Shown one piece after another: positions 1,297 to 18,211 of a stretch of 40,000 nt of DNA. Numbering within the stretch: position 1 is the stretch's first letter; the number at the start of each line of letters is the position of its first letter. The notes beneath the pieces are model-generated. The model saw only the letters and a program-made list of their open reading frames with translations. It was not told where the DNA came from and searched no databases. The DNA is from Undibacterium arcticum (GTDB lineage: Bacteria; Pseudomonadota; Gammaproteobacteria; Burkholderiales; Burkholderiaceae_D): assembly GCF_042660705.1 (NCBI RefSeq), contig NZ_JBHSUQ010000001.1, one strand, 5' to 3'. A program made the position numbers and the translations under genes.

Positions 1297-1560
1297 TCAT
1301 GACACCTCCATTTAACCTAATTCTTAGGCCTGGAAGCGTCGGGCGACTCATGCATGGACGTTGCTATGTTTCGATGATTGATTAGAGCGTGATATTGCGC
1401 TGGAGCCATGTTCAACCGGCGCGAACACTTGGATCCAGCGCCTGCCTCCAAACCGCATCTTGTTCCATATATAAAACAACGATTTATTTAAAACAAACCG
1501 CTGGCATTTTCCGGAATATCTGTTATATTTCAATCGCATAACCGCTCATATATGAATCAG

Positions 1561-1578
1561 TGTTTCGTATGTGAAACA
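1561..1578. promoter_or_regulatory. candidate operator: inverted repeat TGTTTC-N6-GAAACA upstream of the catabolic operon
   Basis: Perfect 6-bp arms lie in the A/T-rich gap about 115 bp upstream of the first operon gene (1694). A weaker TTGTT-N10-AACAA dyad is at 1460-1479. An IclR regulator is encoded in the operon. No consensus can be checked here. Confidence 0.25.
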
Positions 1579-1693
1579 AACAATGCTTCTTTGTGGCGAT
1601 AAGAAGTGGCTGGCCAGGTAGTTTGAATCACCGCTCACAGCAGGCATCCCCGCTTTAGCTTTCGAGCATCAACATTAACGAGTCAGAGACATC

Positions 1694-2482
1694 ATGATCG
1701 AAATCGAATTCCGTAAAGTTGGCAAGAGCTTCCTCGACCGGCAGACATCTGAACCACGTGCCGCGGTAACCAATGTCAATATTTCCATCCGCAGCGGAGA
1801 GGTGGTCTCGATTATCGGACCATCCGGCTGCGGCAAAAGCACCTTGCTCAACATGGGCGCCGGTCTGTATTTGCCGAGCGCGGGCGAAGTCTATGTGAGT
1901 GGCGAGCTCGTCACCAAGCCAGTGCGCAAAGTCGCGTTCATGCTGCAGAAAGACTTGCTGATGCCATGGCGTACCATCCGCGCCAATGTCTCATTGGGCC
2001 TTGAAATCGATGGCGTCGCACCGCGCGAACGACAACGCGTGGCCGACGAGCTGCTGGCCAAGTGTCACTTGAAAGGCTTTGAAGAGCATTACCCGTACCA
2101 GCTGTCCGGCGGCATGCGGCAGCGCGCGGCGCTGGCGCGCACCTTGGCGGTGGACCCGCAGGTATTGCTGCTGGATGAACCATTCTCCGCACTCGATGCA
2201 CAGACCAAGATGGTGTTGCAGCAAGACCTGGCGAAGATGCTGTATGAAAAACGCAAGACCGCGCTGTTCATCACCCACGATCTGGTCGAAGCGATCGCCT
2301 TGTCCGACCGTCTGCTCGTGATGAGCGAGCGTCCCGGCACCATCATCGAAGAAATCGTGGTCGATCTGCCGTATCGCGACAACCCACTGGAGCGCCGCAA
2401 GCTGCCGGAAATCGGGCCCTTGCAGGGGCGCCTGATGGAACTGCTGAAAGTGGGCAAGGAAGAAAGCGCCGAGCTGCATTAA
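1694..2482 (+). CDS. ABC transporter ATP-binding protein (NitT/TauT nitrate/sulfonate/bicarbonate-type)
   Basis: Walker A GPSGCGKST, signature LSGGMRQR, Walker B LLLDEPFSALD, H-loop ITHD. Followed by a matching binding protein and permease. Confidence 0.9.
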   Translation: MIEIEFRKVGKSFLDRQTSEPRAAVTNVNISIRSGEVVSIIGPSGCGKSTLLNMGAGLYLPSAGEVYVSGELVTKPVRKVAFMLQKDLLMPWRTIRANVSLGLEIDGVAPRERQRVADELLAKCHLKGFEEHYPYQLSGGMRQRAALARTLAVDPQVLLLDEPFSALDAQTKMVLQQDLAKMLYEKRKTALFITHDLVEAIALSDRLLVMSERPGTIIEEIVVDLPYRDNPLERRKLPEIGPLQGRLMELLKVGKEESAELH

Positions 2483-2554
2483 GGCGGCGCAGCCGTCGCA
2501 TACCCAATCAAAGCGCATCCAAATGCGTATTTAAGAAACTAACCAGGAGTGAAC

Positions 2555-3544
2555 ATGAGCATGAATAAACCTCTCGCATCTCTCTGCTGCACGTTGGCAC
2601 TGGCGGCAGCAGCAGTGGCGCCTCTCGCGCATGCCGCACCGGAGGAAATAACTTACCTGCTGCCGGCGCCGCCGAATACCCCCGCATTTGCGCCTTGGAT
2701 GATCGCGCAGCAAAAAGGCTATTACGCGGACGAAAACCTGAAGATCAATTTCGTCGCTGCCAAGGGCGGCGTCGATGTGGCAAAACAGATTGGCGCCGGC
2801 AATGCTTTGATCGGCGGTGCAATCGGCGACACGCCGATCATCGTGCGTGCCAACGGCGTGCCGGTGAAGGCGATTGCGGTGCTGGGCGCGGGCTCGCTGA
2901 CCATGGTCGGCGTGCACCAGAATGAAGGCATCAAATCCTTGCAGGATTTGAAGGGCAAGACGGTCACCGTGATGTCGTATACCGACACCACCTATTACGC
3001 TTTGCTGGGCAACCTGCGCGGCATCGGCCTGAGCAAGACCGATGTATCGATCCAGGCCGCCGGTCCGTCAGGCGTCTGGCAAGTGTTTGCCGGCGGCAAA
3101 GCGTCCGGGTTTGCCGGTGTGCCGGACTGGATTGTCAGCGCCACCGATGCCGGCGCCAAGGTCGACATCATCGAGAGCAATGGCTTTAAGAGCATGGCGC
3201 AGGCGATTCTCGCTTCCGACGACACCATTCAACACAAGCCCGAGCTGCTCAAGCGCCTAGTGCGCGCCACCCTGCGCGGCATGGAAGACATCATGAAGGA
3301 CCCGAAAGCCGCAGCTGCAAGTTATGTCGAGGCCGTGCCTTCGTATAAAGGCAAGGAAGCGAGCATCGAACAAATTTTTAATCTGTATCGCAAGCATGTA
3401 TATGCGAACCAGAAGCCGCTAGGCCAGATCGATGCGGCGCGCATGGAGAACGTGCAGAAATTTTATGTCAGCGAAGGCATCGTCAGCAAAGCCTCGCCGG
3501 TCAAAGATCTGTACACCAATCAATTCGTCGGGACAGATCGATAA
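2555..3544 (+). CDS. ABC transporter periplasmic substrate-binding protein (NMT1/SsuA/TauA-like)
   Basis: Signal peptide ...ALAAAAVAPLAHA-AP. Length and context fit NitT/TauT-family binding proteins. AGGAG (2545-2549) sits 5 nt before the ATG at 2555; the ORF track starts at GTG 2549. Confidence 0.85.
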   Translation: MSMNKPLASLCCTLALAAAAVAPLAHAAPEEITYLLPAPPNTPAFAPWMIAQQKGYYADENLKINFVAAKGGVDVAKQIGAGNALIGGAIGDTPIIVRANGVPVKAIAVLGAGSLTMVGVHQNEGIKSLQDLKGKTVTVMSYTDTTYYALLGNLRGIGLSKTDVSIQAAGPSGVWQVFAGGKASGFAGVPDWIVSATDAGAKVDIIESNGFKSMAQAILASDDTIQHKPELLKRLVRATLRGMEDIMKDPKAAAASYVEAVPSYKGKEASIEQIFNLYRKHVYANQKPLGQIDAARMENVQKFYVSEGIVSKASPVKDLYTNQFVGTDR

Positions 3545-4383
3545 TGGAAACCGCAACTACAGCAAACAATGTGGTCATGCCAGCACCAGCAAAACGCGGT
3601 CCTTCGTTTAATGACAAGGCCAAGACTGTCACCGGCAGCTTGCTGCTGCTGGCGCTGTTCCTGGCGCTGTGGGAATGGGGCCCGGGCTGGCTCGGCATGC
3701 CGGAATTTATTCTGCCCCGCTTTAGCAGGGTGGTGCAAGAAGCCGGCGTGATGTGGAGCAACAGCAACCTGCTCGGCCATTTCGGCATTACCGCGTTGGA
3801 AGTAGTGGTCGGCTTTCTGCTCGGTTCGCTGCTCGGCTTGGCGGTCGGCGTTGCGCTCGGCCTATCGCCGCGCGCCGAAGCAATGCTGTCGCCTTACATC
3901 CTGGCGCTGCAGATTGCGCCGAAAGTCGCCTTCGCGCCATTGTTCGTGATGTGGCTCGGCTACACCATCTATCCGAAGATCATCGTCGCGATCCTGATCG
4001 TGTTCTTCCCGGTAATGATCAATGTATTGTCCGCGATCCGCACGGTGGACCCGGACATGGTCAACCTGGTGCGCACCTTGAATGCGAGCCGCTGGCAGAT
4101 CTTCCATCTGGTCGAATTCCGTTCCGCGATGCCGGCGCTGTTCTCTGGTTTGCGCATTGCCTCGACACTGGCGGTGATCGGCGTCACGGTCGGCGAACTG
4201 GTCGGCGGCAACCAGGGCCTCGGCTTCCTGCTGGTCGACGGCGAAGGCCAAGGCAATACCGCGGCGGTGTTTGTCGCGATCTGCGCCTTGACCGTGACTG
4301 GCATCGTCACATACGGCGCCGTGGTCTGGGCCGAACGCCGCGTTCTGCACTACCTGCCCAAAGCGACCACTACCACCAAATAA
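3544..4383 (+). CDS. ABC transporter permease (SsuC/TauC-like, BPD_transp_1)
   Basis: Multi-pass hydrophobic protein. TAATG overlap with the binding-protein gene. Typical EAA-loop region ...ASRWQIFHLVEFRSAMPALFSGLRIA... Confidence 0.9.
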   Translation: METATTANNVVMPAPAKRGPSFNDKAKTVTGSLLLLALFLALWEWGPGWLGMPEFILPRFSRVVQEAGVMWSNSNLLGHFGITALEVVVGFLLGSLLGLAVGVALGLSPRAEAMLSPYILALQIAPKVAFAPLFVMWLGYTIYPKIIVAILIVFFPVMINVLSAIRTVDPDMVNLVRTLNASRWQIFHLVEFRSAMPALFSGLRIASTLAVIGVTVGELVGGNQGLGFLLVDGEGQGNTAAVFVAICALTVTGIVTYGAVVWAERRVLHYLPKATTTTK

Positions 4384-4395
4384 GGAAGCGCCGCC

Positions 4396-5160
4396 ATGCC
4401 TGCATTGAACCAACTTTTAGCCGGACGCCGGGTGCTGGTCACCGGCGCCGCGCGCGGCCTCGGTCTGGCCTTTGCCACCGCGATCGCGGAAGCCGGCGCC
4501 AGCGTTGCGATGGCTGACATCCTGGAAGAGAACCTGCGCCAAAGCGTGGCCGAGCTGACCCGGCGCGGCCTGCAGGTGCACGGCTATCTGCTCGACCTGG
4601 CCGATCCACAATCGATCGACACCTGCGCCCGGAGCGTGGTCGAACAGTTGGGCGGACTGGACGGCCTGGTGAATAACGCAGCGGTCACGAACTCCGGCGG
4701 CCGTTCGTCCGAGCAACTCGATATCGCGCTGTGGGACAAGGTGATGACGGTTAATGTGCGTGGCACCTGGCTGATCACCAATGCCTGTCTCCCGGCACTG
4801 CGCGCATCCGGCCGCGGCAGCATCGTCAACCTGGCTTCCGACACGCCACTGTGGGGCGCGCCGAACCTGCTGGCGTATGTGGCCAGCAAGAGCGCGCTGA
4901 TCGGCATGACACGCTCGCTGGCGCGCGAAGTCGGCGCCGATAACATCACCGTGAATGCGGTCGCGCCCGGTCTGACGCGGGTCGAAGCGACTGAATACGT
5001 GCCGGAAGAGCGCTATCGCACCTATCAGGACGGGCGCGCGCTGCAGCGCCTCCAGTTGCCCGACGATGTGTCCGGCGCAGTGGTGTTTGCACTGTCCGAC
5101 CTTTCCCGTTTTATCACTGGACAAGTGCTTGCCGTCAACGGCGGCTTTGTCATGAATTAA
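4396..5160 (+). CDS. SDR-family oxidoreductase
   Basis: TGAARGLG cofactor motif, NNAA, catalytic S...YVASK, and a C-terminal ...GQVLAVNGG tail. Confidence 0.9.
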   Translation: MPALNQLLAGRRVLVTGAARGLGLAFATAIAEAGASVAMADILEENLRQSVAELTRRGLQVHGYLLDLADPQSIDTCARSVVEQLGGLDGLVNNAAVTNSGGRSSEQLDIALWDKVMTVNVRGTWLITNACLPALRASGRGSIVNLASDTPLWGAPNLLAYVASKSALIGMTRSLAREVGADNITVNAVAPGLTRVEATEYVPEERYRTYQDGRALQRLQLPDDVSGAVVFALSDLSRFITGQVLAVNGGFVMN

Positions 5161-5254
5161 TTTAATCCAAGGAGCTAACGATGGGCGATGTTTCAGAACA
5201 ATTGAAATCCAGCGCAGCTGGGATCAGCCGGCGGGCGCGAGTTTTGAAGACTGG

Positions 5255-5719
5255 ATGAATACTCGCGTGGCCCGTTTTTCGACACGCCAGTATGACTGGA
5301 ACGCATTGAAGTTCCAGGCCGATTACGATCCGAAATACCGCCGCGCGCAAATGCGTTATATCGGCACTGGCGGCACCGGCGTGGCGACCGACAGCAACAC
5401 GATTCCGTCGGAACATTTCACCTTCTCCACCATGATCATTCCGGCCGGGCATGAAGGACCGTCGCATCTGCACATCGATGTGGAAGAAGTGTTCTTCGTC
5501 TTGCGCGGCAAGATCAAGCTGGTGCTGGAAAAGGACGGCGAGCGCTACGAAACCATTCTGACCGACCGCGATGTGGTGTCGATTCCGCCTGGCGTGTACC
5601 GCGAGGAAATAAACATCGGCGAAGAAGATGCGCTGATGTGCGTGATGCTCGGCTCGAACACACCGGTCACGCCGACCTATCCGCCGGATAGCCCGCTGAC
5701 CAAGATCAAGCGTGGCTGA
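5255..5719 (+). CDS. cupin-domain protein; the true start may be the RBS-preceded ATG at 5181 with a frameshift
   Basis: Cupin motifs GHEGPSHLHIDVEEVFFVLRG and PPGVYRE. AAGGAG precedes the ATG at 5181, which opens a 25-codon ORF ending in an ATGA overlap with the 5255 ATG. The cupin frame itself stays open upstream (…IEIQRSWDQPAGASFEDW-MNT). Confidence 0.7.
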   Translation: MNTRVARFSTRQYDWNALKFQADYDPKYRRAQMRYIGTGGTGVATDSNTIPSEHFTFSTMIIPAGHEGPSHLHIDVEEVFFVLRGKIKLVLEKDGERYETILTDRDVVSIPPGVYREEINIGEEDALMCVMLGSNTPVTPTYPPDSPLTKIKRG

Positions 5720-5720
5720 T

Positions 5721-6575
5721 ATGACGACCGCTTGCGCATCCGCGGTCCGCCGTGACGACCTGCAGGACGCCATGTCCCTGTTGGACGAACGCTTCCCCGA
5801 GCGTCGCATCGCGGTGGACGGCGGCGTCGTGTCTTACCGTACCTGCGGAACAGGTCCGGCCATCGTGCTGCTGCACGGGATCGGCTCTGGCGCAGCGTCC
5901 TGGCTGCCTTGCGCGCTGAGAATGGCGCACGAGGCGCAGGTGATCGCATGGAATGCACCGGGATACGGAAGTTCCTCGCCACTGGCCAATGCGCTGCCGC
6001 GCGCTGCGGATTATGCGGCGCGCCTGCACCAGTTGCTGACAACGCTGGACATCAAGCGCTGCGTGTTGGTCGGCCATTCGCTCGGCGCGATCATGGCTTC
6101 AGCGTATACCGCGGCGCATGGCGAAAGCGTGTCGAAGCTGGTGTTGCTCAGCCCTGCACAGGGTTACGGTAGCGCCGCCAGGCGCGCGCAGGGACAGCAG
6201 GTAGCGCAGGATCGCCTGGCCGCGCTGGAAAACATGGGCGTGAGCGGCATGGCCGAGCATCGTTCCGGTCGCATGCTGTCGCCGCAAGCAAGCGACGCGG
6301 CACGCGCCTGGGTGCGCTGGAACATGCAGCAGCTTGACCCCGCCGGATATACGCAAGCGGTGCATATGTTGTGCGGCGACGCAATCCAAAACTATGCTCC
6401 GGTAGGTGTTACAGGCGCCGTGTATTGCGGTGGTGCCGATGCGATCACCACGCCGCAAGACAGCCGGGCACTGGCGACGCAATTCGCGCTGCCGTTCGCG
6501 TTGATCGATGAAGCCGGCCATGCCTGTTACGTCGAACAGCCCGACGCGGTAGCTGCCGCGATTCGCCAGGATTGA
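5721..6575 (+). CDS. alpha/beta-fold hydrolase
   Basis: HG oxyanion motif (VLLHGIGSG), nucleophile elbow GHSLGA, C-terminal His (EAGHACY). The ORF track starts at GTG 5712; ATG 5721 follows the cupin stop. Confidence 0.85.
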   Translation: MTTACASAVRRDDLQDAMSLLDERFPERRIAVDGGVVSYRTCGTGPAIVLLHGIGSGAASWLPCALRMAHEAQVIAWNAPGYGSSSPLANALPRAADYAARLHQLLTTLDIKRCVLVGHSLGAIMASAYTAAHGESVSKLVLLSPAQGYGSAARRAQGQQVAQDRLAALENMGVSGMAEHRSGRMLSPQASDAARAWVRWNMQQLDPAGYTQAVHMLCGDAIQNYAPVGVTGAVYCGGADAITTPQDSRALATQFALPFALIDEAGHACYVEQPDAVAAAIRQD

Positions 6576-6602
6576 TAGTTAACAAATTCAACAGGAAAAA
6601 TC

Positions 6603-7436
6603 ATGACCAAACCAGAGCTGCCAGAAGAAGATACGCAGGAAAAATACGCCGTTCCAGGACTCGAGCGAGGTCTGCGCCTGCTGTGCGAATTTAATCGCCA
6701 GGACAAGACCCTGTCCGCGCCGGAATTGGCAAAGCGCCTGAGCGTGCCGCGTTCGACAGTGTTCCGTTTGCTGACCACGCTCGAGCGCATGGGCTTTGTC
6801 GAGCGCTCCGAAGGCGGCCGCGATTACCGTCTCGGCATGGCCGTGCTGCGCCTCGGCTTCGAATATCTGGCCTCGCTTGAGCTGACCGAGATCGGCCGTC
6901 CGCTGCTGGAACGCCTGCGCGATGAAATCGGTTATTCCTGCAACCTGGTGGTGCGTGACGGCCGTTACATCGTATACGTCGCCAAGTCCGTCACGCCGAC
7001 CGCCTTCGTCAGCTCGGTCAACGTCGGCACGCGGCTGCCGGCCCATGCGACGGTACTCGGCCGCGTGTTGCTGCAAGATCTGTCCTTGAACCAGTTACGC
7101 GAGCTGTATCCCGAAGATCATCTGGAAGTGTTCTCCGAAAACACGCCGAAGACCGTGCTCGAATTGTTCAACATCGTGCAGCAAGATATGGAGCGCGGTT
7201 ATGTGCTGCAAGAGGGCTTCTTCGAACGCGGCATATCGACCGTGGCAGCGCCGGTGCGCGACCATACCGGCAAGGTCGTGGCCGCACTCGGCGCGACCAT
7301 CCCTGCGCCGCACATCGAGGCCAGCCAGCTGGACGGTATCGTGGGCCACGTGCGTGGCAGCGCCAGTGAATTGTCACGTTTGCTCGACCATGCACCGGAA
7401 CAATCGGGCAAGGTCGTCAACCTGTGGCGGAGGTAA
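6603..7436 (+). CDS. IclR-family transcriptional regulator
   Basis: N-terminal winged HTH (LSAPELAKRLSVPRSTVFRLLTTLERMGFVER) and a C-terminal IclR effector domain. Typical length of 277 aa. Confidence 0.9.
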   Translation: MTKPELPEEDTQEKYAVPGLERGLRLLCEFNRQDKTLSAPELAKRLSVPRSTVFRLLTTLERMGFVERSEGGRDYRLGMAVLRLGFEYLASLELTEIGRPLLERLRDEIGYSCNLVVRDGRYIVYVAKSVTPTAFVSSVNVGTRLPAHATVLGRVLLQDLSLNQLRELYPEDHLEVFSENTPKTVLELFNIVQQDMERGYVLQEGFFERGISTVAAPVRDHTGKVVAALGATIPAPHIEASQLDGIVGHVRGSASELSRLLDHAPEQSGKVVNLWRR

Positions 7437-7441
7437 TCACC

Positions 7442-8245
7442 ATGCGCATGATCAATCTCGACGGTAAAGTCGCGGTCGTGACTGGCGGCTCTGCCGGCAT
7501 CGGGCTGGCAACCGTCGAGTTGCTGCTCGAAGCCGGCGCTGCGGTCGCGCTGTGCGGTCGCAATGCGGAGCGTCTCGCGCTGGCCGAAGCGGGTCTGCGC
7601 CAGCGCTTTCCCGACAGCCGCATCCTGAGCGCGGTATGCGACGTGCTGGCGCCGCAACAGGTGCGCGATTTCGCTGCCCAGGTCGAGCAGGCGCTCGGCA
7701 CCGTCTCCATCCTGATCAACAACGCCGGCCAGGGCCGTATCTCGACCTTCGCCGACACCGACGATGCGGCGTGGCTGGAAGAACTGCAGCTCAAATTCTT
7801 TTCCGTCATTCATCCGACCCGGGCCTTCCTGCCGCAGCTGCAACGCGCGCCCGATGCCGCGGTCGTCTGTGTGAATTCACTGCTCGCGGTGCAGCCGGAG
7901 CCGCACATGGTGGCAACCTCGGCCGCCCGGGCCGGCGTGCACAACCTGGTGCGCGCGCTGGCAACCGAATTCAGCGTCGACCAGATCCGCGTCAACGGGA
8001 TCCTGATCGGCCTGGTCGAATCCGGTCAATGGCGCCGCCGTTACGAGGCCCGGCCGGACCAGGAGCGCGCGCTGTCGTGGCAGCAATGGACCGCCCAATT
8101 GGCGCAGAAAAAACAGATTCAACTCGGCCGTCTCGGCCTCCCAGAGGAAGCGGCACGCGCGATCGTGTTTCTGGCGACGCCGCTTTCTTCTTACACAACA
8201 GGCAGCCATATCGATGTTTCAGGAGGACTTTCCCGCCATGCCTAA
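7442..8245 (+). CDS. SDR-family oxidoreductase
   Basis: TGGSAGIG motif, NNAG, and an SDR-like core. GGAGG (7429-7433) precedes ATG 7442; the ORF track starts at GTG 7424. Confidence 0.9.
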   Translation: MRMINLDGKVAVVTGGSAGIGLATVELLLEAGAAVALCGRNAERLALAEAGLRQRFPDSRILSAVCDVLAPQQVRDFAAQVEQALGTVSILINNAGQGRISTFADTDDAAWLEELQLKFFSVIHPTRAFLPQLQRAPDAAVVCVNSLLAVQPEPHMVATSAARAGVHNLVRALATEFSVDQIRVNGILIGLVESGQWRRRYEARPDQERALSWQQWTAQLAQKKQIQLGRLGLPEEAARAIVFLATPLSSYTTGSHIDVSGGLSRHA

Positions 8246-9914
8246 TCAAAACAAAATTACCGTCGGCTGCGCCATTGCAGCTTTTCTAGAACAGTGCAAC
8301 GTCAAGGCGGCGTTCGGCGTGATCTCGATTCACAACATGCCGATCCTCGACGCCTTGGGCGAGCGCGGCAAGATCCGTTTCGTGCCTGCGCGCGGCGAAG
8401 CGGGCGGTACCAACATGGCCGATGCCTATGCGCGCACCACCGGCGGCCTCGGTGTCTGCCTGACCAGTACCGGCACTGCCGCCGGAAATGCCTCCGGCGC
8501 CATGGTGGAAGCACTCACCGCCGGCACGCCCTTGCTGCACCTGACCGGCCAGATCGAAACCCCTTACCTCGACCAGAGTCTGTCATATATCCATGAAGCG
8601 CCGGATCAGCTGACGATGCTGAAAGCCGTCTCGAAAGCGGCCTTCCGCATCCGCAGCGTGGATACTGCGATCAGCACCATCAAGCTGGCGGTGCAAACCG
8701 CGCTGACGCCGCCGATGGGCCCGGTCAGCGTAGAAATCCCGATCGACATCCAGGCTGCACTGATCACCATGCCGGCCGATCTGCGCCCGCTGGCGATCGC
8801 GTGCCAGGCCCCGTCCGAGCAAGCGCTCGATGAACTGGCCGAGAAATTGATGAAAGCAAAACGTCCGCTGCTGTGGCTGGGTGGCGGAACGCGCGGTGCC
8901 AGTGCACAGGTCAAGCGCCTGATGAACATGGGCTTCGGCGTGGTGACGACGACACAAGGCCGAGGCGTGGTGCCGGAAGATGACGCGCGCTCGCTGGGCG
9001 CCTTCAACCTGCATAAGCCGGTGGAAAATTTCTATCAAACTTGCGATGCGATGGTGGTGGTCGGTTCCCGTTTGCGCGGCAACGAAACACTGAAATATGA
9101 ACTGAAGCTGCCGCGTCCCTTGTTCCGGATCGATGCCGATCCGGCCGCAGAAGGCCGCTGCTACCAGAGCGATGCCTTCCTCTGCGGCGATGCTGCGCTG
9201 GCGCTGCAAGGCCTGGCCGATCGCCTGGAAGGAAAAATGAAGGTCGATCCCGCTTTCATTGGCGACTTGCAAAAGGCGCGCGACACTGCGGTCGCCGGCC
9301 TGGTCGACGGCCTTGGCCCATACAGCGCGCTGGTATCGCGCCTACAGGAAGCTGCCGGCCGCAGCTTCAACTGGGTCCGTGATGTGACGGTGTCGAACAG
9401 CACCTGGGGCAACCGCTTCCTGCGCATTTTCGATCCGCTGGCCGGCGTGCATGCACTGGGCGGCGGCATCGGGCAGGGGCTGGCGATGGCGATCGGCGCC
9501 GCAGTGGGCGCCGCCGAGACCGCACCCGGCAAGAAAACGTTCTGTCTGGCCGGCGATGGCGGCTTCATCCTGAACCTGGGCGAGCTGGCAACCGCAGTGC
9601 AGGAACGTGCCGACATGGTGATCGTCCTGATGAATGACAAAGGTTATGGCGTGATCAAGAACATCCAGGACGCGCAGTACGGTGGCCGCCGTCATTACGT
9701 CGACCTGCATACGCCGGACTACGCGATGTTGTCGCAGTCGCTCCAGCTGCGCCATGCTCGCATCAGCAATCTGGCCGATGTCGGCGCCGGCTTGCGTAGC
9801 GCGCTGGCCGAACCCGGCCCGTTTCTGCTTGAAATCGACATGCTGTCGATCGGCAGCTTCAAGACCGCCTTTGCCGGCCCGCCGGTCAAGGTCGACGAAC
9901 CTGCAACAGCTTAA
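8238..9914 (+). CDS. thiamine-diphosphate-dependent enzyme (acetolactate synthase / benzoylformate decarboxylase superfamily)
   Basis: N-terminal PYR domain (GEAGGTNMADAYAR...). ThDP-binding motif GDGGF-x24-NDKGYG. AGGAGG precedes ATG 8238, which overlaps the SDR stop. Confidence 0.9.
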   Translation: MPNQNKITVGCAIAAFLEQCNVKAAFGVISIHNMPILDALGERGKIRFVPARGEAGGTNMADAYARTTGGLGVCLTSTGTAAGNASGAMVEALTAGTPLLHLTGQIETPYLDQSLSYIHEAPDQLTMLKAVSKAAFRIRSVDTAISTIKLAVQTALTPPMGPVSVEIPIDIQAALITMPADLRPLAIACQAPSEQALDELAEKLMKAKRPLLWLGGGTRGASAQVKRLMNMGFGVVTTTQGRGVVPEDDARSLGAFNLHKPVENFYQTCDAMVVVGSRLRGNETLKYELKLPRPLFRIDADPAAEGRCYQSDAFLCGDAALALQGLADRLEGKMKVDPAFIGDLQKARDTAVAGLVDGLGPYSALVSRLQEAAGRSFNWVRDVTVSNSTWGNRFLRIFDPLAGVHALGGGIGQGLAMAIGAAVGAAETAPGKKTFCLAGDGGFILNLGELATAVQERADMVIVLMNDKGYGVIKNIQDAQYGGRRHYVDLHTPDYAMLSQSLQLRHARISNLADVGAGLRSALAEPGPFLLEIDMLSIGSFKTAFAGPPVKVDEPATA

Positions 9915-9926
9915 GGAGAGAAAGAT

Positions 9927-10733
9927 ATGTTGCACGTTTCGATGATCGGCTATGGCGCTATCGGCGCCGGTGTTATGGAGTTACTCAAGAGCGATCCGGA
10001 GGTCGTGTTCGACGTCGTCATCGTGCCGGAAGCGGCACTCGCCAGCGCGGGCCCGATGGTGCGCGCGCTGGCGCCGCAGGCGCGGGTCGCCGTGCGCCTG
10101 GACTATGACGGAGTGCGCCCCGACCTGCTGATTGAATGTGCCGGTCATGGGGCGATTGAAGAACATATCCTGCCGGCGCTGGAACGCGGCATTGCCTGCA
10201 TGGTGGTGTCAATCGGCGCGCTGTGCGAACCCGGCCTGGCCGAACGTCTGGAACAGGCGGCTCGACGCGGCAAGACGCAGGTGCAATTGCTGTCTGGCGC
10301 CATCGGCGCGATCGACGCGTTGTCGGCGGCCAAGATCGGCGGGCTCGATTCGGTGGTCTACACCGGGCGCAAGCCGCCTGGCGCCTGGAAAGACACGCCG
10401 GCGGAAGCGCTGTTCGCGCTCGATGCACTGGACGGCGTCACCGTGATCTTTGAAGGCAGCGCGCGCGAAGCCGCACGGCTGTATCCAAAGAATGCCAACG
10501 TCGCGGCCACGCTGGCACTGGCCGGACTGGGGCTGGATCATACGCAGGTGCGCCTGCTGGCCGATCCAGCGGTCACGGAAAACGTGCATCACGTGGAAGC
10601 CAAAGGCGCATTCGGCGGCTTCGAGCTGACCATGCGGGGCAAGCCGCTGGTGGCCAACCCTAAAACCTCGGCATTGACGGTGTTCAGCGTGGTGCGCGCG
10701 CTCAACAACCGCGCACATGCATTGTCGATTTGA
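9927..10733 (+). CDS. L-aspartate dehydrogenase (NadX)-family protein
   Basis: GYGAIG Rossmann start. The central and C-terminal regions (...YTGRKPPGAW..., NVAATLALAG, HHVEAKGAFG) are typical of the aspartate dehydrogenase family. AAGGAGAG RBS. Confidence 0.8.
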   Translation: MLHVSMIGYGAIGAGVMELLKSDPEVVFDVVIVPEAALASAGPMVRALAPQARVAVRLDYDGVRPDLLIECAGHGAIEEHILPALERGIACMVVSIGALCEPGLAERLEQAARRGKTQVQLLSGAIGAIDALSAAKIGGLDSVVYTGRKPPGAWKDTPAEALFALDALDGVTVIFEGSAREAARLYPKNANVAATLALAGLGLDHTQVRLLADPAVTENVHHVEAKGAFGGFELTMRGKPLVANPKTSALTVFSVVRALNNRAHALSI

Positions 10734-10760
10734 GCCAACTTATATTGATCGAAGGCTGAC

Positions 10761-12248
10761 ATGAATCTGAACCAAACACTTCCCATCTGTATCGCCGGCC
10801 GCTGGCGCCTGGGGCAGGGCGACCGCTACGCCACGCTGTACCCGGCCACGGGTGAGGCAGTGGCTTACCTGAACGCGGCCAGCCTCGACGACGTGGAAGA
10901 AGCGATCCAGGGTGCCGATGTGGCCTTTCGCACCAGCGGCTGGGCGCAGCGCAAGCCGCACGAACGAGCCGCCGTGCTGTACCGCGTGGCGCAACTGATC
11001 CGCGAACGCGGCGAGGAACTGGCGCAGCTGCAGCGCCTGGACAACGGCAAGCCGATCACGGAAACACGCAACCTGGTCGGCAGCGCCGCCGCCACGTTCC
11101 AGTTCTTCGCTGCCGCCTGCGAGACGCTGGAAGAAACCATCACACCTAGCCGCGGCGACAACCTGACCATGAGCGTGTACGAGCCCATGGGTGTGATAGC
11201 GGCGATCACGCCGTGGAATTCGCCGATCGCAAGCGAAGCGCAAAAGATGGCGCCGGCACTCGCCGCCGGCAATGCGGTGGTGGTCAAGCCGGCCGAAGTG
11301 ACGCCGCTGATGGCGCTGGAACTTGCCAGGATTTGCGAAGAAGCAGGTGTGCCCAAGGGCCTGATCAGCGTGTTGCCCGGCAAGGGCTCGGTGATCGGCG
11401 ACGCCATCACGCTTCATCCGCTGGTGCGCCGCGTGTCATTCACCGGCGGCACCAGCACCGGCAAGCATATTGCGCATATTGCTGCCGACAAGATGATGCC
11501 GGTGTCGCTCGAACTGGGTGGCAAGTCGCCGACCATGGTGTTCGAGGATGCTGATCTGGATCACGCGGTGGCCGGCGTGCTGTACGGAATATTCAGCTCG
11601 TCCGGCGAATCCTGTATCGCCGGTTCGCGCCTGTTTGTCGGACATGGCATTTACGACACCTTCATGGAACGCCTGGCTGCCGGCGCCGCTGCGTTGCGGG
11701 TGGGCGACCCGGCCGACGAGCGCACGCAGGTCGGCCCGCTGATCACGGCGCGTCATCGCGAATCGATTGAATCCTATGTCGCGCTGGGTATTGAGGACGG
11801 CGGCCGCCTGCGTACTGGCGGCATGCGCCCGCAAGGCGCGCAATTCGATCGCGGCAATTACTACCTGCCGACCATCATCGAAGACGTGCGCAACGACCAG
11901 CGCATCTGCCAGGAAGAGATCTTCGGGCCGGTGCTGGTGGCGATGCCGTTCAGCGACGAAAACGATTTGATCGAACAGGCCAACGACAGCGTATATGCGC
12001 TCGCTGCTGGCATCTGGACCCGCGATTACAAGAAGGCCTGGCGATTCGGCCGCGCGGTACAGGCCGGTAATGTCTGGATCAATACCTACAAGCAGTTTTC
12101 GATCTCGACCCCGTTTGGCGGCTGGCGCGACAGCGGCCTCGGACGCGAAAAGGGCCGGCTCGGCATCCTGCAATACATGGAACAGAAGAGCCTCTACTGG
12201 GGCATGAACGAACAGCCGCTGCCTTGGGCTGGCGAGGAGAATATTTGA
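10761..12248 (+). CDS. NAD(P)-dependent aldehyde dehydrogenase
   Basis: ELGGKSP (catalytic Glu), GESCIAGSR (catalytic Cys), EEIFGPV; 495 aa. Confidence 0.9.
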   Translation: MNLNQTLPICIAGRWRLGQGDRYATLYPATGEAVAYLNAASLDDVEEAIQGADVAFRTSGWAQRKPHERAAVLYRVAQLIRERGEELAQLQRLDNGKPITETRNLVGSAAATFQFFAAACETLEETITPSRGDNLTMSVYEPMGVIAAITPWNSPIASEAQKMAPALAAGNAVVVKPAEVTPLMALELARICEEAGVPKGLISVLPGKGSVIGDAITLHPLVRRVSFTGGTSTGKHIAHIAADKMMPVSLELGGKSPTMVFEDADLDHAVAGVLYGIFSSSGESCIAGSRLFVGHGIYDTFMERLAAGAAALRVGDPADERTQVGPLITARHRESIESYVALGIEDGGRLRTGGMRPQGAQFDRGNYYLPTIIEDVRNDQRICQEEIFGPVLVAMPFSDENDLIEQANDSVYALAAGIWTRDYKKAWRFGRAVQAGNVWINTYKQFSISTPFGGWRDSGLGREKGRLGILQYMEQKSLYWGMNEQPLPWAGEENI

Positions 12249-13240: not shown

Positions 13241-13245
13241 ACCAT

Positions 13246-14406
13246 ATGTCTTCTCTGAAAATCGGCATTGTCGGCGCCGGTATTGGCGGGCTCACTGCAG
13301 CGATCGCCTTGCATCGCGCTGGCCATGATGTGGTCGTGTTCGAACAGTCGAAACAATTCCTGCGGGTTGGTGCCGACATAAATCTGACCCCGAATGCGGT
13401 GCGCGCACTGGACGGACTGGGCATCGGCGATGCCGTGCGCCACACTGCCGCGCGCCCCACGCACCGTATTAGCCGCACTTGGGACACCGGCGATGAAACC
13501 TCGCGGCTTGAGATGGGCGACAGCGCCGAGCAAAAATACGGCGCGCCGCAACTGACCATCCACCGCGCCGATTTGCTGGCCGCACTGGCCGCCGTGTTCC
13601 CGGCGGAGCGCGTCTTGTTCGCCAAGCGCGCTGAAGAAGTCAAGCAGGATGCGGATGGCATTACGCTGACGTTCACAGACGGCAGTACCTACCTGGTCGA
13701 TGCATTGATCGGCGCCGATGGCATCCATTCCGCGGTACGCACCGCGATGTTCGGCAGGGAAAATCCACGCTTCACCGGCGTGGTCGCGTTCCGCGCGGTG
13801 ATACCGGCCGAACGTGTAGCCCAGGTGCCGAACATTCAGGCGTTCACCAAATGGTGGGGCCCTAATCTGCAAAGTCAGATCGTCACTTTCCCGCTTAACC
13901 GCGGCAAGGATATTTTTATCTTCGCCACCACCGCGCAGGAAAGTTGGCATCTGGAATCGTGGACTACGCAGGGCAGCGTGCAGGAATTGCGCGACAGCTA
14001 CGCCGGTTTCCACCCCGACGCGCGGGCTCTTCTCGATGCCTGCGACGAAGTGTTGAAGACGGCGCTGTACGAACGCGATCCGCTCCCGCATTGGTCGCAT
14101 GACCGCATGGTGTTGCTGGGCGATGCCTGCCACCCGATGATGCCCTTCATGGCGCAAGGCGCGGGTATGTCGATCGAGGACGCGGTCGTTCTTGCGCGTG
14201 AGATCGCAGGGATTACTCAAGTTGCCGATATGGATACCGCATTCCAGCGTTACGAATCGTTGCGCCTGGAGCGCGCCAGCAAGATTCAGATCGGTTCGCG
14301 CGGCAACAACTGGTTGCGCGAAGGCGGCAATGCCGACTGGGTGTATGGCTACGATGCATGGACAGTGAAGGCGGAATCGGCCGCGCCTGATGCCCAATGC
14401 GATTGA
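13246..14406 (+). CDS. FAD-dependent aromatic monooxygenase (salicylate hydroxylase / 3-hydroxybenzoate 6-hydroxylase / NicC-like class A)
   Basis: GAGIGGLTAA dinucleotide fold, DG motif (ADGIHSAVR), GDACHPMMPFMAQGAGMSIEDA. Confidence 0.9.
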   Translation: MSSLKIGIVGAGIGGLTAAIALHRAGHDVVVFEQSKQFLRVGADINLTPNAVRALDGLGIGDAVRHTAARPTHRISRTWDTGDETSRLEMGDSAEQKYGAPQLTIHRADLLAALAAVFPAERVLFAKRAEEVKQDADGITLTFTDGSTYLVDALIGADGIHSAVRTAMFGRENPRFTGVVAFRAVIPAERVAQVPNIQAFTKWWGPNLQSQIVTFPLNRGKDIFIFATTAQESWHLESWTTQGSVQELRDSYAGFHPDARALLDACDEVLKTALYERDPLPHWSHDRMVLLGDACHPMMPFMAQGAGMSIEDAVVLAREIAGITQVADMDTAFQRYESLRLERASKIQIGSRGNNWLREGGNADWVYGYDAWTVKAESAAPDAQCD

Positions 14407-14463
14407 ATTGATGACTTGGTACCCGGCGCAAGCGCATCCGCGCACGCCACAGAAACGGAGGGA

Positions 14464-14691
14464 ATGATGCAAGAACTTTATTTGAATTCGCACCAGGCGC
14501 GCCGCCGCCTGCCGACCGCCTACGAGGATCTGCTGGGCGATTCGATCGAACGCTCGTTTGCGTCCGGCATTCATGATCTGGCGGCACTGGTCGAACACCT
14601 GAACCGCAGCGGGCCGAACTGCCCTGGCAGCGACGTATGGACCGAGCAAAACTATCAGACGGAAATGGCGCGTCTGGCCGCCGAATGCTAA
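14464..14691 (+). CDS. small conserved-looking hypothetical protein (75 aa)
   Basis: GGAGGG RBS before ATG 14464. Core-like codon usage. Lies between the monooxygenase and the Rieske oxygenase. No motif recognised. Confidence 0.5.
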   Translation: MMQELYLNSHQARRRLPTAYEDLLGDSIERSFASGIHDLAALVEHLNRSGPNCPGSDVWTEQNYQTEMARLAAEC

Positions 14692-14706
14692 TCAAAGAAA
14701 GGTCAA

Positions 14707-15735
14707 GTGATGAGAACTCAAGCAAACGATCCCGTTGATGCCGCACTGTCCATCGGCCTGAAGGATCTGTGGTATCCAATTTGCCCGTCCGAATTTGTCG
14801 CTGAACGCCCGGTGTCGCTGCGCCGTCTCGGCCGCAAGTTCGTGTTTTGGCGCGAAGCGTCCGGCGTGCTGCACGCGCTGGAAGACCATTGTCCGCATCG
14901 CGGCGCGCCACTCTCGCTCGGCATTGCGCTGGGCGACCGGATCGCCTGCGGCTACCACGGCGTGCAGGTGCGCGCCGACGGCGTGGTGATGAGCGTGCCG
15001 GGCAGCCCCGGCTGCAAGCTGGAAGGCGCCAAGGCGACTCGTTCCTTCCACGTGCGAGAAGCGGCCGGCGCAATCTTCCTGTACAACGCCAGCGGCGAGA
15101 TCGCCGAACCGCCGCCGCTGAACCTGCCGCCCGAACTGACCGGCGACGAGTATTCGAACTTCCTCTGCTACACCGAATGGAACGGCGATTACCGCTACGT
15201 GCTTGACAATGTGATGGACCCGATGCACGGCACCTTCCTGCACAAGCAGTCGCATTCGATGGCGGAAGGCGAATCCACGGCGGCATTCCGCGTGCGCGAT
15301 ACCGACACCGGCTTCGTGTTCGAGAAGGAAGGCCAGCGCGGCGTCAACTTCGACTGGACCGAATGGGCCGATACCGGCCTGCATTGGATGCGCCTGGAAA
15401 TTCCATATCCGAAAACGGGCGGGCCCGGCGGTAATTTCATCATCATCGGCAGCTACACGCCGATCTCGGACAACGTGTCGACCGCATTCCACTGGCGCGT
15501 GCGCAAGGTCAGCGGCTGGCAGCGCGACACCTGGCGCTTCCTGTATAAGAACCGCCTCGAGGAACGGCACTGGAAAGTGCTGGAACAGGACCGCGCGATC
15601 CTGGAAGCGATGGAGCCGGACGCCAATCAGCACGAAATGCTGTACCAGCACGACATGGGCATCGTCCGTCTGCGCCGTCACCTGCGCAGCCTGGCGAAAG
15701 CGCAGCTCGCAGCGGCCGAGGAAAAGGCGGCGTGA
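14707..15735 (+). CDS. Rieske [2Fe-2S] non-heme-iron oxygenase, alpha-only (phthalate/VanA family)
   Basis: Rieske motif CPHRGAPLS-x16-CGYHG. Mononuclear iron region NVMDPMHGTFLH. 342 aa, with no beta subunit, and followed by a PDR-type reductase. Confidence 0.9.
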   Translation: MMRTQANDPVDAALSIGLKDLWYPICPSEFVAERPVSLRRLGRKFVFWREASGVLHALEDHCPHRGAPLSLGIALGDRIACGYHGVQVRADGVVMSVPGSPGCKLEGAKATRSFHVREAAGAIFLYNASGEIAEPPPLNLPPELTGDEYSNFLCYTEWNGDYRYVLDNVMDPMHGTFLHKQSHSMAEGESTAAFRVRDTDTGFVFEKEGQRGVNFDWTEWADTGLHWMRLEIPYPKTGGPGGNFIIIGSYTPISDNVSTAFHWRVRKVSGWQRDTWRFLYKNRLEERHWKVLEQDRAILEAMEPDANQHEMLYQHDMGIVRLRRHLRSLAKAQLAAAEEKAA

Positions 15736-15797
15736 ACTTCTGCCGTGTTCCGACCTTCGACCTGTAATGCAGTTTAATTCTTGCAAGAGTTTGAACC

Positions 15798-16750
15798 ATG
15801 ACTAGCAGTCCTCTTCTTTCCGTCCGTGTGCAGGCAATGCGCTTCGAGGCAGCCGGCATCGTCAGCGTGGAACTGGTGTCGCCGGCGGGTACCGAACTGC
15901 CCGCCTTCGCCGCGGGCGCGCACATCGATCTGCATCTGCCGAACGGCGTGGTGCGCAGCTACTCGCTGTCGAACCCGCCGACCGAGCGGCACCGTTATGT
16001 GGTTGGCGTGCTGAATGACCGCAACAGCCGCGGCGGTTCGCGTTATGTGCACGAGCAGTTGCGCGTCGGCTCGACCATCGATATCTCGCTGCCGCGCAAT
16101 AACTTTCCGCTGGACGAATCGGCGCCGCATACGGTACTGATCGCGGGCGGCATCGGCATTACACCGATTTTTGCATGCTGAACCATCTGCGCAGCCTGGG
16201 CAAGTCGGTTGAACTTCTGTACTGCGCGCGCTCCCAGGCGGAAGCGGCGTTCTGCGACATGCTGCTGACGGACGGACGCGTGCAGACCCATTTTGACCAG
16301 GACAAAGGAGCGCCGCCTGATCTGCGCGCTTACCTTGCCGGCCAGTCCGCCACTGCGCATTTTTACTGCTGTGGACCGACGCCGATGCTGAACGCTTTCG
16401 AAAACATTTGCGCAGAGCTTGGTTTTCCGAACGTGCACATCGAGCGTTTCACCCCCGCGGAGCCGGTGGAGGCGGTCCAAGGCAGCGAGTATGTGGCCTA
16501 CCTGTCGCGCGCCAAGAAATCGGTCACGGTGCCGGCCGGAAAGTCGCTGCTGGACGCGCTGTTGGAAGCCGGAATGAGTGTCGACCACAGCTGCCGCGAA
16601 GGCGTGTGCGGTTCGTGCGAGACCAGGGTGCTGGAAGGCGTGCCTGACCATCGCGACGGCGTATTGACCAAGGCTGAGCGCGAATCCGGCAAGACCATGA
16701 TGGTGTGCGTGTCCGGTTGCAAGGGACAGCGCATGGTGCTCGATTTGTAA
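15798..16750 (+). pseudogene. PDR/VanB-type oxidoreductase (FMN/NAD-binding domain plus plant-type 2Fe-2S ferredoxin), split by a 1-nt frameshift as assembled
   Basis: ORFs 15798-16181 (RSYSLSN, GGIGITPIF) and 16175-16750 (MLNHL..., CREGVCGSCET) are the two halves of one reductase. The join lies at the T5 run 16168-16172; one extra T restores ...GITPIFCMLNHL... Confidence 0.85.
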
Positions 16751-16771
16751 TCGCTGACAGCTTCAGGAAAT

Positions 16772-16798
16772 GCCCGGATCAACTCGGGCTTTTTTTTT
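16772..16798 (+). terminator. Rho-independent terminator after the oxygenase/reductase genes
   Basis: GCCCG (16772-16776) / CGGGC (16785-16789) stem followed by T9 (16790-16798), about 20 nt after the reductase stop. Confidence 0.7.
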
Positions 16799-16933
16799 GA
16801 CGCTAGTGGATTTTTTAAAACGTTGTTTTATAGGTGAAACGCGTTTGTCTTTATTCACCGCGGCAAGCGAAGGGCGAGCGGGTGAAATGTACACGGCGTG
16901 CGCCGTGCAATTCAATAAAAGGGGGGGAGTTTG

Positions 16934-17997
16934 ATGAAACAGGTACTTTTTGTCATCGCGGCTACAGGCATGACTGCAGGTGCGTTCGCGCAAAGCAACG
17001 TGACGGTCTACGGCAGCATGGACGCCGGCGTTGCATACGTTAACAACGTGGGCGGCAAGTCAGTCACGCGGCTGGACCAGGGCACCATGCAACCGGACCG
17101 GATTGGTTTCCGCGGCACTGAAGATCTGGGCGAGGGTTTGAAAGCCAATTACCAGCTGGAGGCCGGTTTTTCCACCGATACCGGCGCCAGCACCAATGCT
17201 AACCGCCTGTTCAACCGTGCCAGCACTATCGGCCTGTCGGGCAGCTTCGGTGCGGTGACCTTGGGTAACATGCCGGATATCGTATTCGACTATGCAGGCA
17301 AACTGAGCAACGGCTTCCAGCTCACCAATTTCTACCTGTTCCATCCGGGTAATCTGGATACGCTGGCTAATACCTTTCAGTTCAACAACGCCGTCCGCTA
17401 CACCTCGCCCAGTTTCTCCGGACTGACTATGAGCGCGATGTACGGTTTTGGTGAAGTCGCGGGCGACAACAGCAAGGGTCGCAACATCAGCGCGGGCGCC
17501 AACTATGTACAGGGTCCGTTGCGCCTGGTGCTGGCGTACTCGAAGCAAACGATCGCGTAGCGGGCTATGCCGGCACCTTTCTCGGCAGCCTTGGTCTGGG
17601 CAATGGCGCGACCGTATTCAACAGCCTGACGACACTGGCAACAGGCGCCGGCTACACGATCGGCGATGTGCGTCTGAACGGCTTGTACACACAGAACAAG
17701 ATCGAACTGCCGGCATCCAGCTTGACGCAAAAGAATGTCGATCTCGGCGCGAGCTGGCATTACAACCCGGCCAATGCGCTGAACCTCGGCTACACGCATT
17801 CCAAACTGGAAGGCGCGCGCTATAACCAGATCAGCGTGAGCAATGTCTACTCGCTGTCCAAGCGCACCGAAGTCTATGCGCAGGCGGCGTACCAGCGCGC
17901 CGGGGGCACTGCGCACTTTGCGATCCAGAACAACACCGGTGTATCCAGCAGTGACAGCCAATGGGTGACAACGGTAGGCATGCACCACTCGTTCTAG
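16934..17997 (+). pseudogene. Gram-negative trimeric porin (Burkholderia OmpC/Omp38-like), split by a 1-nt frameshift as assembled
   Basis: Signal peptide ...GAFA-QSNVTVYGSMDAG. C-terminal ...VGMHHSF. ORFs 16931-17560 and 17668-17997 join through the open frame ...NDRVAGYAGTFLG... if the A3 run at 17547-17549 is read as A4. Confidence 0.85.
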
Positions 17998-18006
17998 GGT
18001 AGCTTT

Positions 18007-18037: not shown

Positions 18038-18051
18038 GTTAGGGAGGAAGA

Positions 18052-18180: not shown

Positions 18181-18211
18181 TACTGAATCCTGCCAAACGA
18201 AAGGAGCAGAC

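Follow-up and report, generated by a model that had tools for sequence, protein, structure and literature searches.

A conserved catabolic gene cluster of Undibacterium arcticum with its own predicted IclR regulon, a candidate locus for kynurenate degradation

Gene content, intactness and conservation of the cluster

We analyzed a 40,000-nucleotide stretch of the Undibacterium arcticum genome (RefSeq assembly GCF_042660705.1, contig NZ_JBHSUQ010000001.1), hereafter called the window, in which 17 genes occupy positions 1694 to 17997 (Table 1). The genes were identified from the list of open reading frames (ORFs) and by Pfam and NCBIfam profile searches, and every credible gene within these limits lies on the + strand. 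The set combines an ATP-binding cassette (ABC) importer, a porin, an IclR-family regulator, a Rieske oxygenase with its reductase, a flavin adenine dinucleotide (FAD)-dependent monooxygenase, an extradiol dioxygenase of the VOC type, two short-chain dehydrogenases (SDR1 and SDR2), a cupin, an alpha/beta-hydrolase, a thiamine diphosphate (ThDP)-dependent enzyme, an L-aspartate dehydrogenase family protein (AspDH), an aldehyde dehydrogenase (ALDH) and a small HTH_62 protein. A first-pass annotation made from the letters alone had counted 17 co-directional genes, and all the gene types that it listed proved correct. Judged by its gene content, the locus appears to be an aromatic-acid catabolic regulon. 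It is very probably an intact one, under the control of its own IclR protein, that serves a nitrogen-containing aromatic carboxylate and lacks a characterized orthologue; that this carboxylate is specifically kynurenate (4-hydroxyquinoline-2-carboxylate) is a proposal on which we are evenly divided.

As assembled, four of the genes are broken or altered. The reductase is split into two ORFs (15798-16181 and 16175-16750) by a one-base difference in a T run at 16167-16172, and the porin likewise (16931-17560 and 17668-17997) at 17546, where A4 stands against A3. The cupin is assembled without 25 N-terminal residues, its frame being broken at 5204, and a shift at 13186 puts the C terminus of the VOC dioxygenase out of frame, with the ORF running to 13240. 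With the Rieske protein we retrieved another public assembly that covers the same DNA (GCA_042646465.1, a 74.7-kb contig labeled L099). Over positions 4713-25734 of the window, L099 showed 0 mismatches and 11 gap openings, all of them in A/T homopolymer runs (5204, 13186, 16167, 16790, 17546, 18531, 20115, 21204, 21338, 23582 and 24586), and in L099 the cupin, VOC dioxygenase, reductase and porin are all whole; the corrected gene coordinates in Table 1 are taken from this comparison. Because L099 differs solely in A/T homopolymer length and carries all four genes whole, the breaks are assembly errors and not gene decay. A decaying cluster, with real frameshifts and a pathway inactive in this strain, would account for the four altered genes as assembled. 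It is contradicted by this independent assembly, with 0 substitutions in 21 kb, and by the neighboring FRG and PEGA kinase genes, unrelated to the cluster, which are also whole in L099 and carry the same type of error in the window. Moreover, the window's source assembly has 3 contigs and 89.7% marker completeness, and low completeness in few contigs is typical of uncorrected long reads. We consider decay barely conceivable, and we treat the cluster, going by its corrected sequence, as presumably fully functional. Until checked, any apparent frameshift in this genome is best regarded as an assembly error.

A search with the ThDP enzyme yielded 559 confirmed relatives in species-representative genomes, and the best 80 of these 559, in which the enzyme is 76-89% identical, define the related loci considered below. 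They belong to Herbaspirillum, Noviherbaspirillum, Collimonas, Massilia, Pseudoduganella, Duganella, Cupriavidus, Ralstonia, Alcaligenaceae, Rhodoferax and Pseudomonas. When all window proteins were searched against these loci, we found an 11-enzyme core made up of SDR1, cupin, hydrolase, IclR, SDR2, ThDP enzyme, AspDH, ALDH, VOC dioxygenase, Rieske oxygenase and reductase. Since the order of this core is kept in the 80 loci at such identities of the ThDP enzyme, the conserved gene arrangement is far beyond chance. Protein identities across the syntenic orthologues span about 45-96%; the cupin is the best-conserved protein of the set (78-90%), and SDR1 is 66-85% identical. The distribution is patchy: of 301 genomes sampled evenly across the order, 12 carry an orthologue of the ThDP enzyme, and none was found among the other sampled genomes of the window's own family.

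The catalog of accessory genes across the 80 loci is new. The importer, which the first-pass annotation had placed among the cluster's parts, is indeed present here but proved variable across relatives and is not core: the ABC ATPase is absent from the Cupriavidus, Ralstonia and Collimonas loci, and in other lineages the ABC importer is swapped for major facilitator superfamily (MFS) or TctC carriers. The porin is missing from some related loci, and the FAD monooxygenase was undetected in about 56 of the 80. The HTH_62 gene was detected in about half of them (41-77% identity), always directly before the Rieske gene. A RidA-family gene, absent here, separates the Rieske gene from the reductase gene in Herbaspirillum, Collimonas, Alcaligenaceae and Pseudomonas. 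It travels beside the Rieske gene together with a gene for a 108-residue protein without a family match (in L034, the 108-residue protein is encoded at 16228-16554 and the RidA-family protein at 17850-18296), and the pair is absent from the window, from its closest relative L009 and from Massilia/Pseudoduganella, lineages that bear an Old Yellow Enzyme (OYE) gene instead. This ene-reductase gene adjoins the cluster in L009, in Massilia/Pseudoduganella and in some Cupriavidus loci; its orthologue was not found in the U. arcticum genome, where the best match was a paralogue with 43% identity.

Both edges of the cluster differ from those of L009. The slot of the divergent OYE gene of L009 is occupied in the window (1-1296) by three minus-strand ORFs (1-393, 449-865 and 862-1296) in DNA of lower G+C content, without a Pfam or NCBIfam match, and similarity to L009 begins only at window position 1455. 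On the opposite side, a 4HB-MCP chemoreceptor gene stands right after the porin gene in L009, Massilia, Pseudoduganella and several Herbaspirillum loci (Oxalobacteraceae). It is deleted here (window 17998-18200 versus L009:19867-21447), and similarity resumes in the FRG gene (18198-18418).

Table 1. Genes and regulatory features of the cluster, with corrected coordinates in the window
Feature	Position	Strand	Evidence or remark
Operator-like palindrome, site 1, GTTCCATATATAAAAC	1462..1477		PWM 26.3, top score of the genome
Sigma-70-like promoter 5' of the first gene	1501..1529	+	Consensus scan, 9/12 matches plus TG extension; weak alone
Operator-like palindrome, site 2, GTTTCGTATGTGAAAC	1562..1577		PWM 23.9, genome rank 2
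ABC transporter ATPase, NitT/TauT type	1694..2482	+	PF00005, 4.6e-31
Periplasmic substrate-binding protein, NMT1/THI5-like	2549..3544	+	PF09084, 2.1e-31
ABC permease	3544..4383	+	PF00528, 1.6e-30
SDR1, classical short-chain dehydrogenase; candidate cis-dihydrodiol dehydrogenase (putative role)	4396..5160	+	PF13561, 2.9e-58
Cupin, true length 179 aa; candidate metal-dependent oxygenase	5181..5719	+	PF07883 (Cupin_2)
Alpha/beta-fold hydrolase, 267 aa	5772..6575	+	PF12697, 3.3e-24; start from the gene call of L099
IclR-family regulator, PcaR/PobR-like	6603..7436	+	PF01614 and PF09339
SDR2 (NCBIfam PRK07062 equivalog)	7442..8245	+	NF005468, 442 bits (cut-off 266)
ThDP-dependent enzyme; candidate 2-oxoacid decarboxylase	8238..9914	+	Three TPP domains; NF005470, 921 bits
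AspDH	9927..10733	+	NF009827 equivalog; PF01958 and PF03447
ALDH, NAD(P)-dependent	10761..12248	+	PF00171, 6.9e-169
Two-domain type I extradiol (VOC) dioxygenase, 321 aa	12248..13211	+	PF00903
Class A FAD monooxygenase, NicC-like fold; accessory	13246..14406	+	PDB 5eow, 7.1e-87
HTH_62 protein, 75 aa	14464..14691	+	PF20552, 4e-30, full length
Alpha-only Rieske oxygenase, VanA_C type	14710..15735	+	PF00355 and PF19112
PDR/VanB-type reductase (flavin/NAD domain and C-terminal 2Fe-2S), 317 aa	15798..16750	+	Fer2 and NAD_binding_1 on the L099 copy
Intrinsic terminator, GC stem then T9 run	16772..16798	+	T7 in L099
Operator-like palindrome, site 3, 5' of the porin gene	16825..16840		PWM 23.2, genome rank 3
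Gram-negative porin, 354 aa	16934..17997	+	PF13609
PWM, position weight matrix; aa, amino acids.

Operator sites and the predicted regulon

Alignment of 29 upstream regions of the related loci exposed a 16-bp palindrome with the consensus GTTTYATATATGRAAC. Nearly all of the 80 loci have it in their promoter regions, where it precedes whichever gene leads each cluster as well as the porin and substituted transporter genes. Site 2 of the window is the conserved block of this alignment, and the window held 2 matches against 0.15 expected. Sites 1 and 2 lie about 100 bp apart, a paired spacing kept in relatives (3231 and 3333 in L009), and sites equivalent to site 3 stand ahead of the porin gene in L009, L018, L027, L031 and the Collimonas and Ralstonia loci. 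A PWM built from the relatives alone was then run against all 5.74 Mb of the genome. The first three ranks went to the three intergenic sites in this cluster, and the next score was 19.3, as expected of an IclR regulon whose operator is confined to the promoters of one locus. This fourth-best match (G000:C1:4952968, in L098) lies just upstream of an IS5-family transposase gene; as an additional regulon member it was rejected, being probably a chance match or part of the end of the insertion sequence. An Rfam scan of window positions 1-19000 found no family.

Intergenic gaps range from -8 to 62 nt as far as the reductase gene, whose stop codon is directly followed by the terminator hairpin, 136 nt ahead of the porin start. 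Genes 1 to 16 (1694-16750) are probably a single operon that ends at this terminator, and the porin is a separate, co-regulated transcription unit with its own promoter. The earlier description of one 17-gene cluster therefore stands as regards the common strand and has to be amended for the porin, which forms its own unit past the terminator.

On sequence grounds, the most economical interpretation is an IclR protein that governs only the locus in which its gene is embedded, namely, the 16-gene operon and the porin. The protein scored 173 bits against TIGR02431, for which the cut-off is 285. We do not recognize the operator sequence from the literature known to us, and the conserved operator, its genome-wide specificity and the porin as a separate co-regulated unit are new. 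With its effector known, the IclR protein might, together with the operator, be used as a biosensor. The Pseudomonas loci L084 (18500-19825) and L086 (18751-19980) encode, 3' of the reductase gene, a conserved protein of about 410-440 residues without a Pfam or NCBIfam match; its gene has operator-like sites upstream and might also belong to the regulon there.

Substrate class and a possible kynurenate route

Because ABC, MFS and TctC importers are interchangeable in this cluster, its substrate would be an organic acid (carboxylate). Nitrogen and an aspartate-like N-C(COOH)-C-C fragment are suggested by the core AspDH and by the frequent RidA, an enamine/imine deaminase, and a C=C reduction step by the recurrent OYE ene-reductase. 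The carrier swaps, AspDH and RidA thus lend support to the initial proposal of a charged and possibly nitrogen-containing (hetero)aromatic substrate. Aligned to homoprotocatechuate 2,3-dioxygenase, the VOC dioxygenase keeps His155, His200, His214, His248, Tyr257 and Glu267. As all six extradiol catalytic residues are retained, a catechol is predicted to be formed and cleaved in the pathway; among solved structures, all distant, the enzyme matches an uncharacterized Novosphingobium protein.

Other leads on the substrate were set aside. The ABC ATPase came nearest to the SaoA and taurine ATPase models of NCBIfam, both under cut-off, and the binding protein scored 97 bits against SsuA_fam, short of the cut-off of 163; sulfonate catabolism is unlikely, given the exchangeable importer type and a cluster without desulfonation genes. 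Phthalate is also unlikely (no protocatechuate genes), as is vitamin B6, to whose pathway SDR1 and the hydrolase bear a weak resemblance (no lactonase). A riboflavin/lumichrome pathway (PMC12746152) shares keywords with the locus but depends on a P450 and a xanthine oxidase, neither of which occurs here.

The kynurenate ("quinoline") pathway of tryptophan catabolism was reportedly worked out in pseudomonads by the Hayaishi laboratory in 1959-63. Its classical route runs through kynurenate 7,8-hydroxylase (EC 1.14.99.2), a dihydrodiol dehydrogenase (EC 1.3.1.18) and 7,8-dihydroxykynurenate 8,8a-dioxygenase (EC 1.13.11.10). Reduction of the 3-carboxy-3-oxopropenyl side chain, decarboxylation to a formylethyl compound and oxidation to 5-(2-carboxyethyl)-4,6-dihydroxypicolinate follow (KEGG map00380), and the reported end products are glutamate, alanine, acetate and CO2. 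To our knowledge, the steps past carboxyethyl-dihydroxypicolinate were never defined. In the literature on kynurenate degradation, we found no genes assigned to the classical pathway. By analogy of enzyme classes, the set described here fits this pathway step by step. The first-pass statement that the cluster could not be mapped onto a described pathway accordingly holds for gene-defined pathways and fails for the classical kynurenate route, described in biochemical terms.

Candidates for the 7,8-dihydroxylation are the Rieske oxygenase and PDR-type reductase, which are core and have intact cofactor motifs (C-x-H...C-x2-H and D-x2-H-x4-H in the oxygenase). Two core SDRs are available for the dihydrodiol dehydrogenase step, neither of them assignable to it; SDR2 is a candidate for either a diol dehydrogenase or a side-chain reductase. 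The VOC dioxygenase matches the Fe(II) extradiol dioxygenase of the third step at the level of enzyme class only. The side-chain steps have candidates in the core ThDP enzyme and ALDH and, in some lineages outside this genome, in the OYE. Among the NCBIfam models with a defined enzyme name, the ThDP enzyme scored best against 5-guanidino-2-oxopentanoate decarboxylase, and its PDB matches are acetolactate synthases (about 1e-48); the nearest models of ALDH, BADH and HpaE, stayed under their cut-offs. AspDH scored 471 bits against the NF009827 equivalog model (cut-off 226). No nadA or nadC gene is adjacent, as would be seen in a NadX-type context, and the gene forms part of a catabolic operon. 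The cupin carries an H-x-H-x3-E metal motif, its best PDB sequence match being the Ni-quercetinase QueD (2.5e-06). The nucleophile elbow of the hydrolase reads G-H-S-L-G, and its distant PDB matches include the vitamin B6 pathway amide hydrolase 3kxp, MhpC and RutD.

From these assignments we propose that the locus is a catabolic regulon under its own IclR regulator that would import and fully degrade a nitrogen-containing bicyclic or heteroaromatic carboxylic acid. Porin and ABC system would import kynurenate, which the Rieske oxygenase and reductase would convert to the 7,8-cis-dihydrodiol and one SDR would re-aromatize to 7,8-dihydroxykynurenate. Cleavage of the benzene ring at 8,8a by the VOC dioxygenase would give 5-(3-carboxy-3-oxopropenyl)-4,6-dihydroxypicolinate. 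The side-chain C=C bond would be reduced by the second SDR here and by the adjacent OYE in some relatives, the resulting 2-oxoacid decarboxylated by the ThDP enzyme, and the aldehyde converted by ALDH to 5-(2-carboxyethyl)-4,6-dihydroxypicolinate. This carboxyethyl-hydroxypyridone would hold the skeletons of 2-oxoglutarate (C6, C5 and the carboxyethyl chain) and of aspartate (N1, the C2 carboxyl, C3 and C4). In the most speculative step, the cupin and the alpha/beta-hydrolase might open and hydrolyze the hydroxypyridone to a 2-oxoglutarate-type fragment and an aspartate or iminoaspartate fragment; the cupin is put forward as ring opener because of its metal site and its distant likeness to quercetinase. 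Also speculatively, AspDH would interconvert the aspartate/iminoaspartate fragment with oxaloacetate and ammonia. It is a tentative idea, in our view probably wrong in some part, that these are the long-missing kynurenate genes and that their lower half is a new hydroxypyridone opening by cupin and hydrolase, which releases 2-oxoglutarate and iminoaspartate captured by a catabolic AspDH.

Several points weigh against kynurenate as the substrate, beginning with the fact that we infer both the substrate and every step assignment. The dihydroxylation is assumed for a Rieske oxygenase without a close characterized relative, whose best PDB match is the structure of the O-demethylase GdmA (7qwt, 4.8e-19). 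The assignments of SDR1 and SDR2 to their steps are arbitrary, and the scheme gives no role to the FAD monooxygenase or the HTH_62 protein. In the cupin, the histidine of motif 2 is replaced by arginine, so that one canonical metal ligand is missing; its AlphaFold model has a predicted local distance difference test (pLDDT) score of 66, and Foldseek returned generic cupins alone (germin, quercetinase and phosphoglucose isomerase) at template-modeling (TM) scores of about 0.4. No kynurenine or tryptophan genes were found in the flanks of 12 annotated related loci. The kynU-kynA pair of this genome (G000:C1:3689445-3691646) is unlinked, 1.3 Mb from the cluster. It encodes a kynureninase (TIGR01814, 358 bits) with an adjacent tryptophan 2,3-dioxygenase (PF03301, 223 bits), from which the strain is predicted to make kynurenine from tryptophan by the standard route. 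Indirectly in favor of kynurenate, Acinetobacter baumannii is reported to grow on kynurenic acid (review PMC10732645), and in this species the trio of AspDH, ALDH and ThDP enzyme is encoded by A1S_0956-0958 (PMC5757984); the growth report, however, is second-hand.

The same logic could apply to another nitrogen-containing aromatic carboxylate, such as xanthurenate, a hydroxylated quinaldate, another hydroxyquinoline or hydroxypyridine carboxylate or an amino-aromatic acid, with kynurenate at most a side substrate. AspDH, RidA, the MFS/TctC swaps and the extradiol chemistry are all generic to this class, the variable NicC-like monooxygenase suggests several entry substrates, and the lack of linked kynurenine genes fits as well. 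Against this, no other described pathway known to us combines the sequence of dihydroxylation, extradiol cleavage, ene reduction, 2-oxoacid decarboxylation and then aldehyde oxidation with an aspartate-type N-C(COOH)-C-C fragment, and the cluster lacks the Mo hydroxylases by which quinaldate, picolinate and nicotinate are typically attacked. We hold such a substrate to be possible, though doubtful. A reading as two fused modules, in which AspDH, the ThDP enzyme and ALDH form an Ehrlich-type route (via a 2-oxoacid and an aldehyde to an acid) on an aromatic or aspartate-like amino acid and the oxygenases degrade the resulting acid, seems unlikely to us. The ALDH gene lies two genes 3' of the ThDP enzyme gene with AspDH between (gaps of 12 and 27 nt), the trio is annotated together in A. 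baumannii, and kynurenine itself is a possible amino acid here, as its 2-oxoacid cyclizes to kynurenate. However, in none of the 80 loci does the trio occur without the oxygenase, VOC, cupin and hydrolase genes, AspDH reaches the aspartate dehydrogenase equivalog model, and the importer swaps favor an acid over a zwitterionic amino acid. The P. aeruginosa orthologue PA3505, reported to be a specific L-aspartate dehydrogenase, also counts against two modules.

A van-like O-demethylation of a methoxylated, lignin-derived acid, with a Rieske demethylase feeding a catechol to the VOC dioxygenase, would suit the VanA_C domain of the Rieske oxygenase (57 bits) and the presence of the O-demethylases GdmA and DdmC among its best solved relatives. 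The similarity to these enzymes is very remote (about 1e-17 to 1e-19), and no NCBIfam VanA or equivalent model was reached, the sole NCBIfam match being a sterol monooxygenase (55 bits, cut-off 600). Such a route would also leave AspDH, RidA, the ThDP enzyme and OYE without a role, and the cluster contains no genes for formaldehyde or tetrahydrofolate handling; we regard it as highly improbable.

The kynurenate reading would have consequences beyond this locus. In animals, plants and microbes alike, kynurenic acid is among the major metabolites of tryptophan; it has signaling functions in gut and brain, and reviews on its microbial breakdown still cite 1960s enzymology alone. The candidate gene set, found in soil Burkholderiales and, by other evidence, in P. 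aeruginosa and A. baumannii, would make three orphan EC activities and the lower kynurenate pathway testable after 60 gene-less years. If the reading is true, it would explain an aspartate dehydrogenase kept outside NAD synthesis, give the mesophilic AspDH family a first physiological role and provide markers for kynurenate turnover in microbiomes.

Comparison with known systems

No characterized orthologue of the cluster was found, and the closest homologues of the Rieske oxygenase and the cupin all bear generic names. Pseudomonas loci L084 and L086 are syntenic with the window cluster, and the P. aeruginosa protein P0086 is 72% identical to the window Rieske oxygenase. The cluster presumably corresponds to PA3498-PA3514 of P. 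aeruginosa PAO1, with the same gene content and order; as a difference, the Pseudomonas version has the RidA-like and 108-residue genes missing here. The literature that mentions PA3498-PA3514 locus tags gives no function for them. PA3499 is mentioned in a paper on the YjgF/RidA family, in agreement with the presence of a RidA gene next to the Rieske gene in Pseudomonas loci. Syntenic orthologues thus exist, some above 60% identity, but with generic names and no published function that we could find, and the claim that the cluster belongs to no characterized pathway is borne out.

Among solved structures, the FAD monooxygenase matches best, and over its full length, the 6-hydroxynicotinate 3-monooxygenase NicC of the nicotinate pathway. 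The earlier assignment to the salicylate-hydroxylase/NicC type was right as to the fold and needs revision as to the active site: in the alignment, His47 and Tyr215, on which 6-hydroxynicotinate turnover by NicC depends, are replaced by Asn and Thr, respectively, a predicted loss of the NicC catalytic pair that is new. The cluster further differs from the nicotinate pathway in the absence of NicAB, NicX, NicD and NicF (Pfam searches of the cluster found no Mo hydroxylase, NicX-type dioxygenase or deformylase), and the FAD monooxygenase gene is missing in most loci. With class IA Rieske systems (phthalate dioxygenase/PDR, VanAB and OxoOR, the 2-oxoquinoline 8-monooxygenase), the locus shares an alpha-only oxygenase, a VanA_C-type domain and a single flavin-[2Fe-2S] reductase. 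It differs in that solved members match at merely 1e-07 to 5e-19, that the conserved HTH_62 gene precedes the Rieske gene, and that in relatives a RidA gene often follows it. The regulator resembles PcaR/PcaU/PobR-type IclR proteins, TIGR02431 being its closest model and the putative target promoters having palindromic operators; unlike them, it scores under the subfamily cut-off and its gene lies mid-operon, not divergent.

The classical kynurenate pathway is known as biochemistry alone, in which it differs from the gene set described here. The likeness extends over its whole length: a two-component NAD(P)H-dependent dihydroxylating oxygenase, a diol dehydrogenase and an Fe(II) extradiol dioxygenase all have candidates of the required class in the cluster, as do NADH-dependent side-chain reduction, 2-oxoacid decarboxylation and aldehyde oxidation, and the reported glutamate, alanine, acetate and CO2 agree with the 2-oxoglutarate-type and aspartate-type fragments that the proposed ring opening would release.

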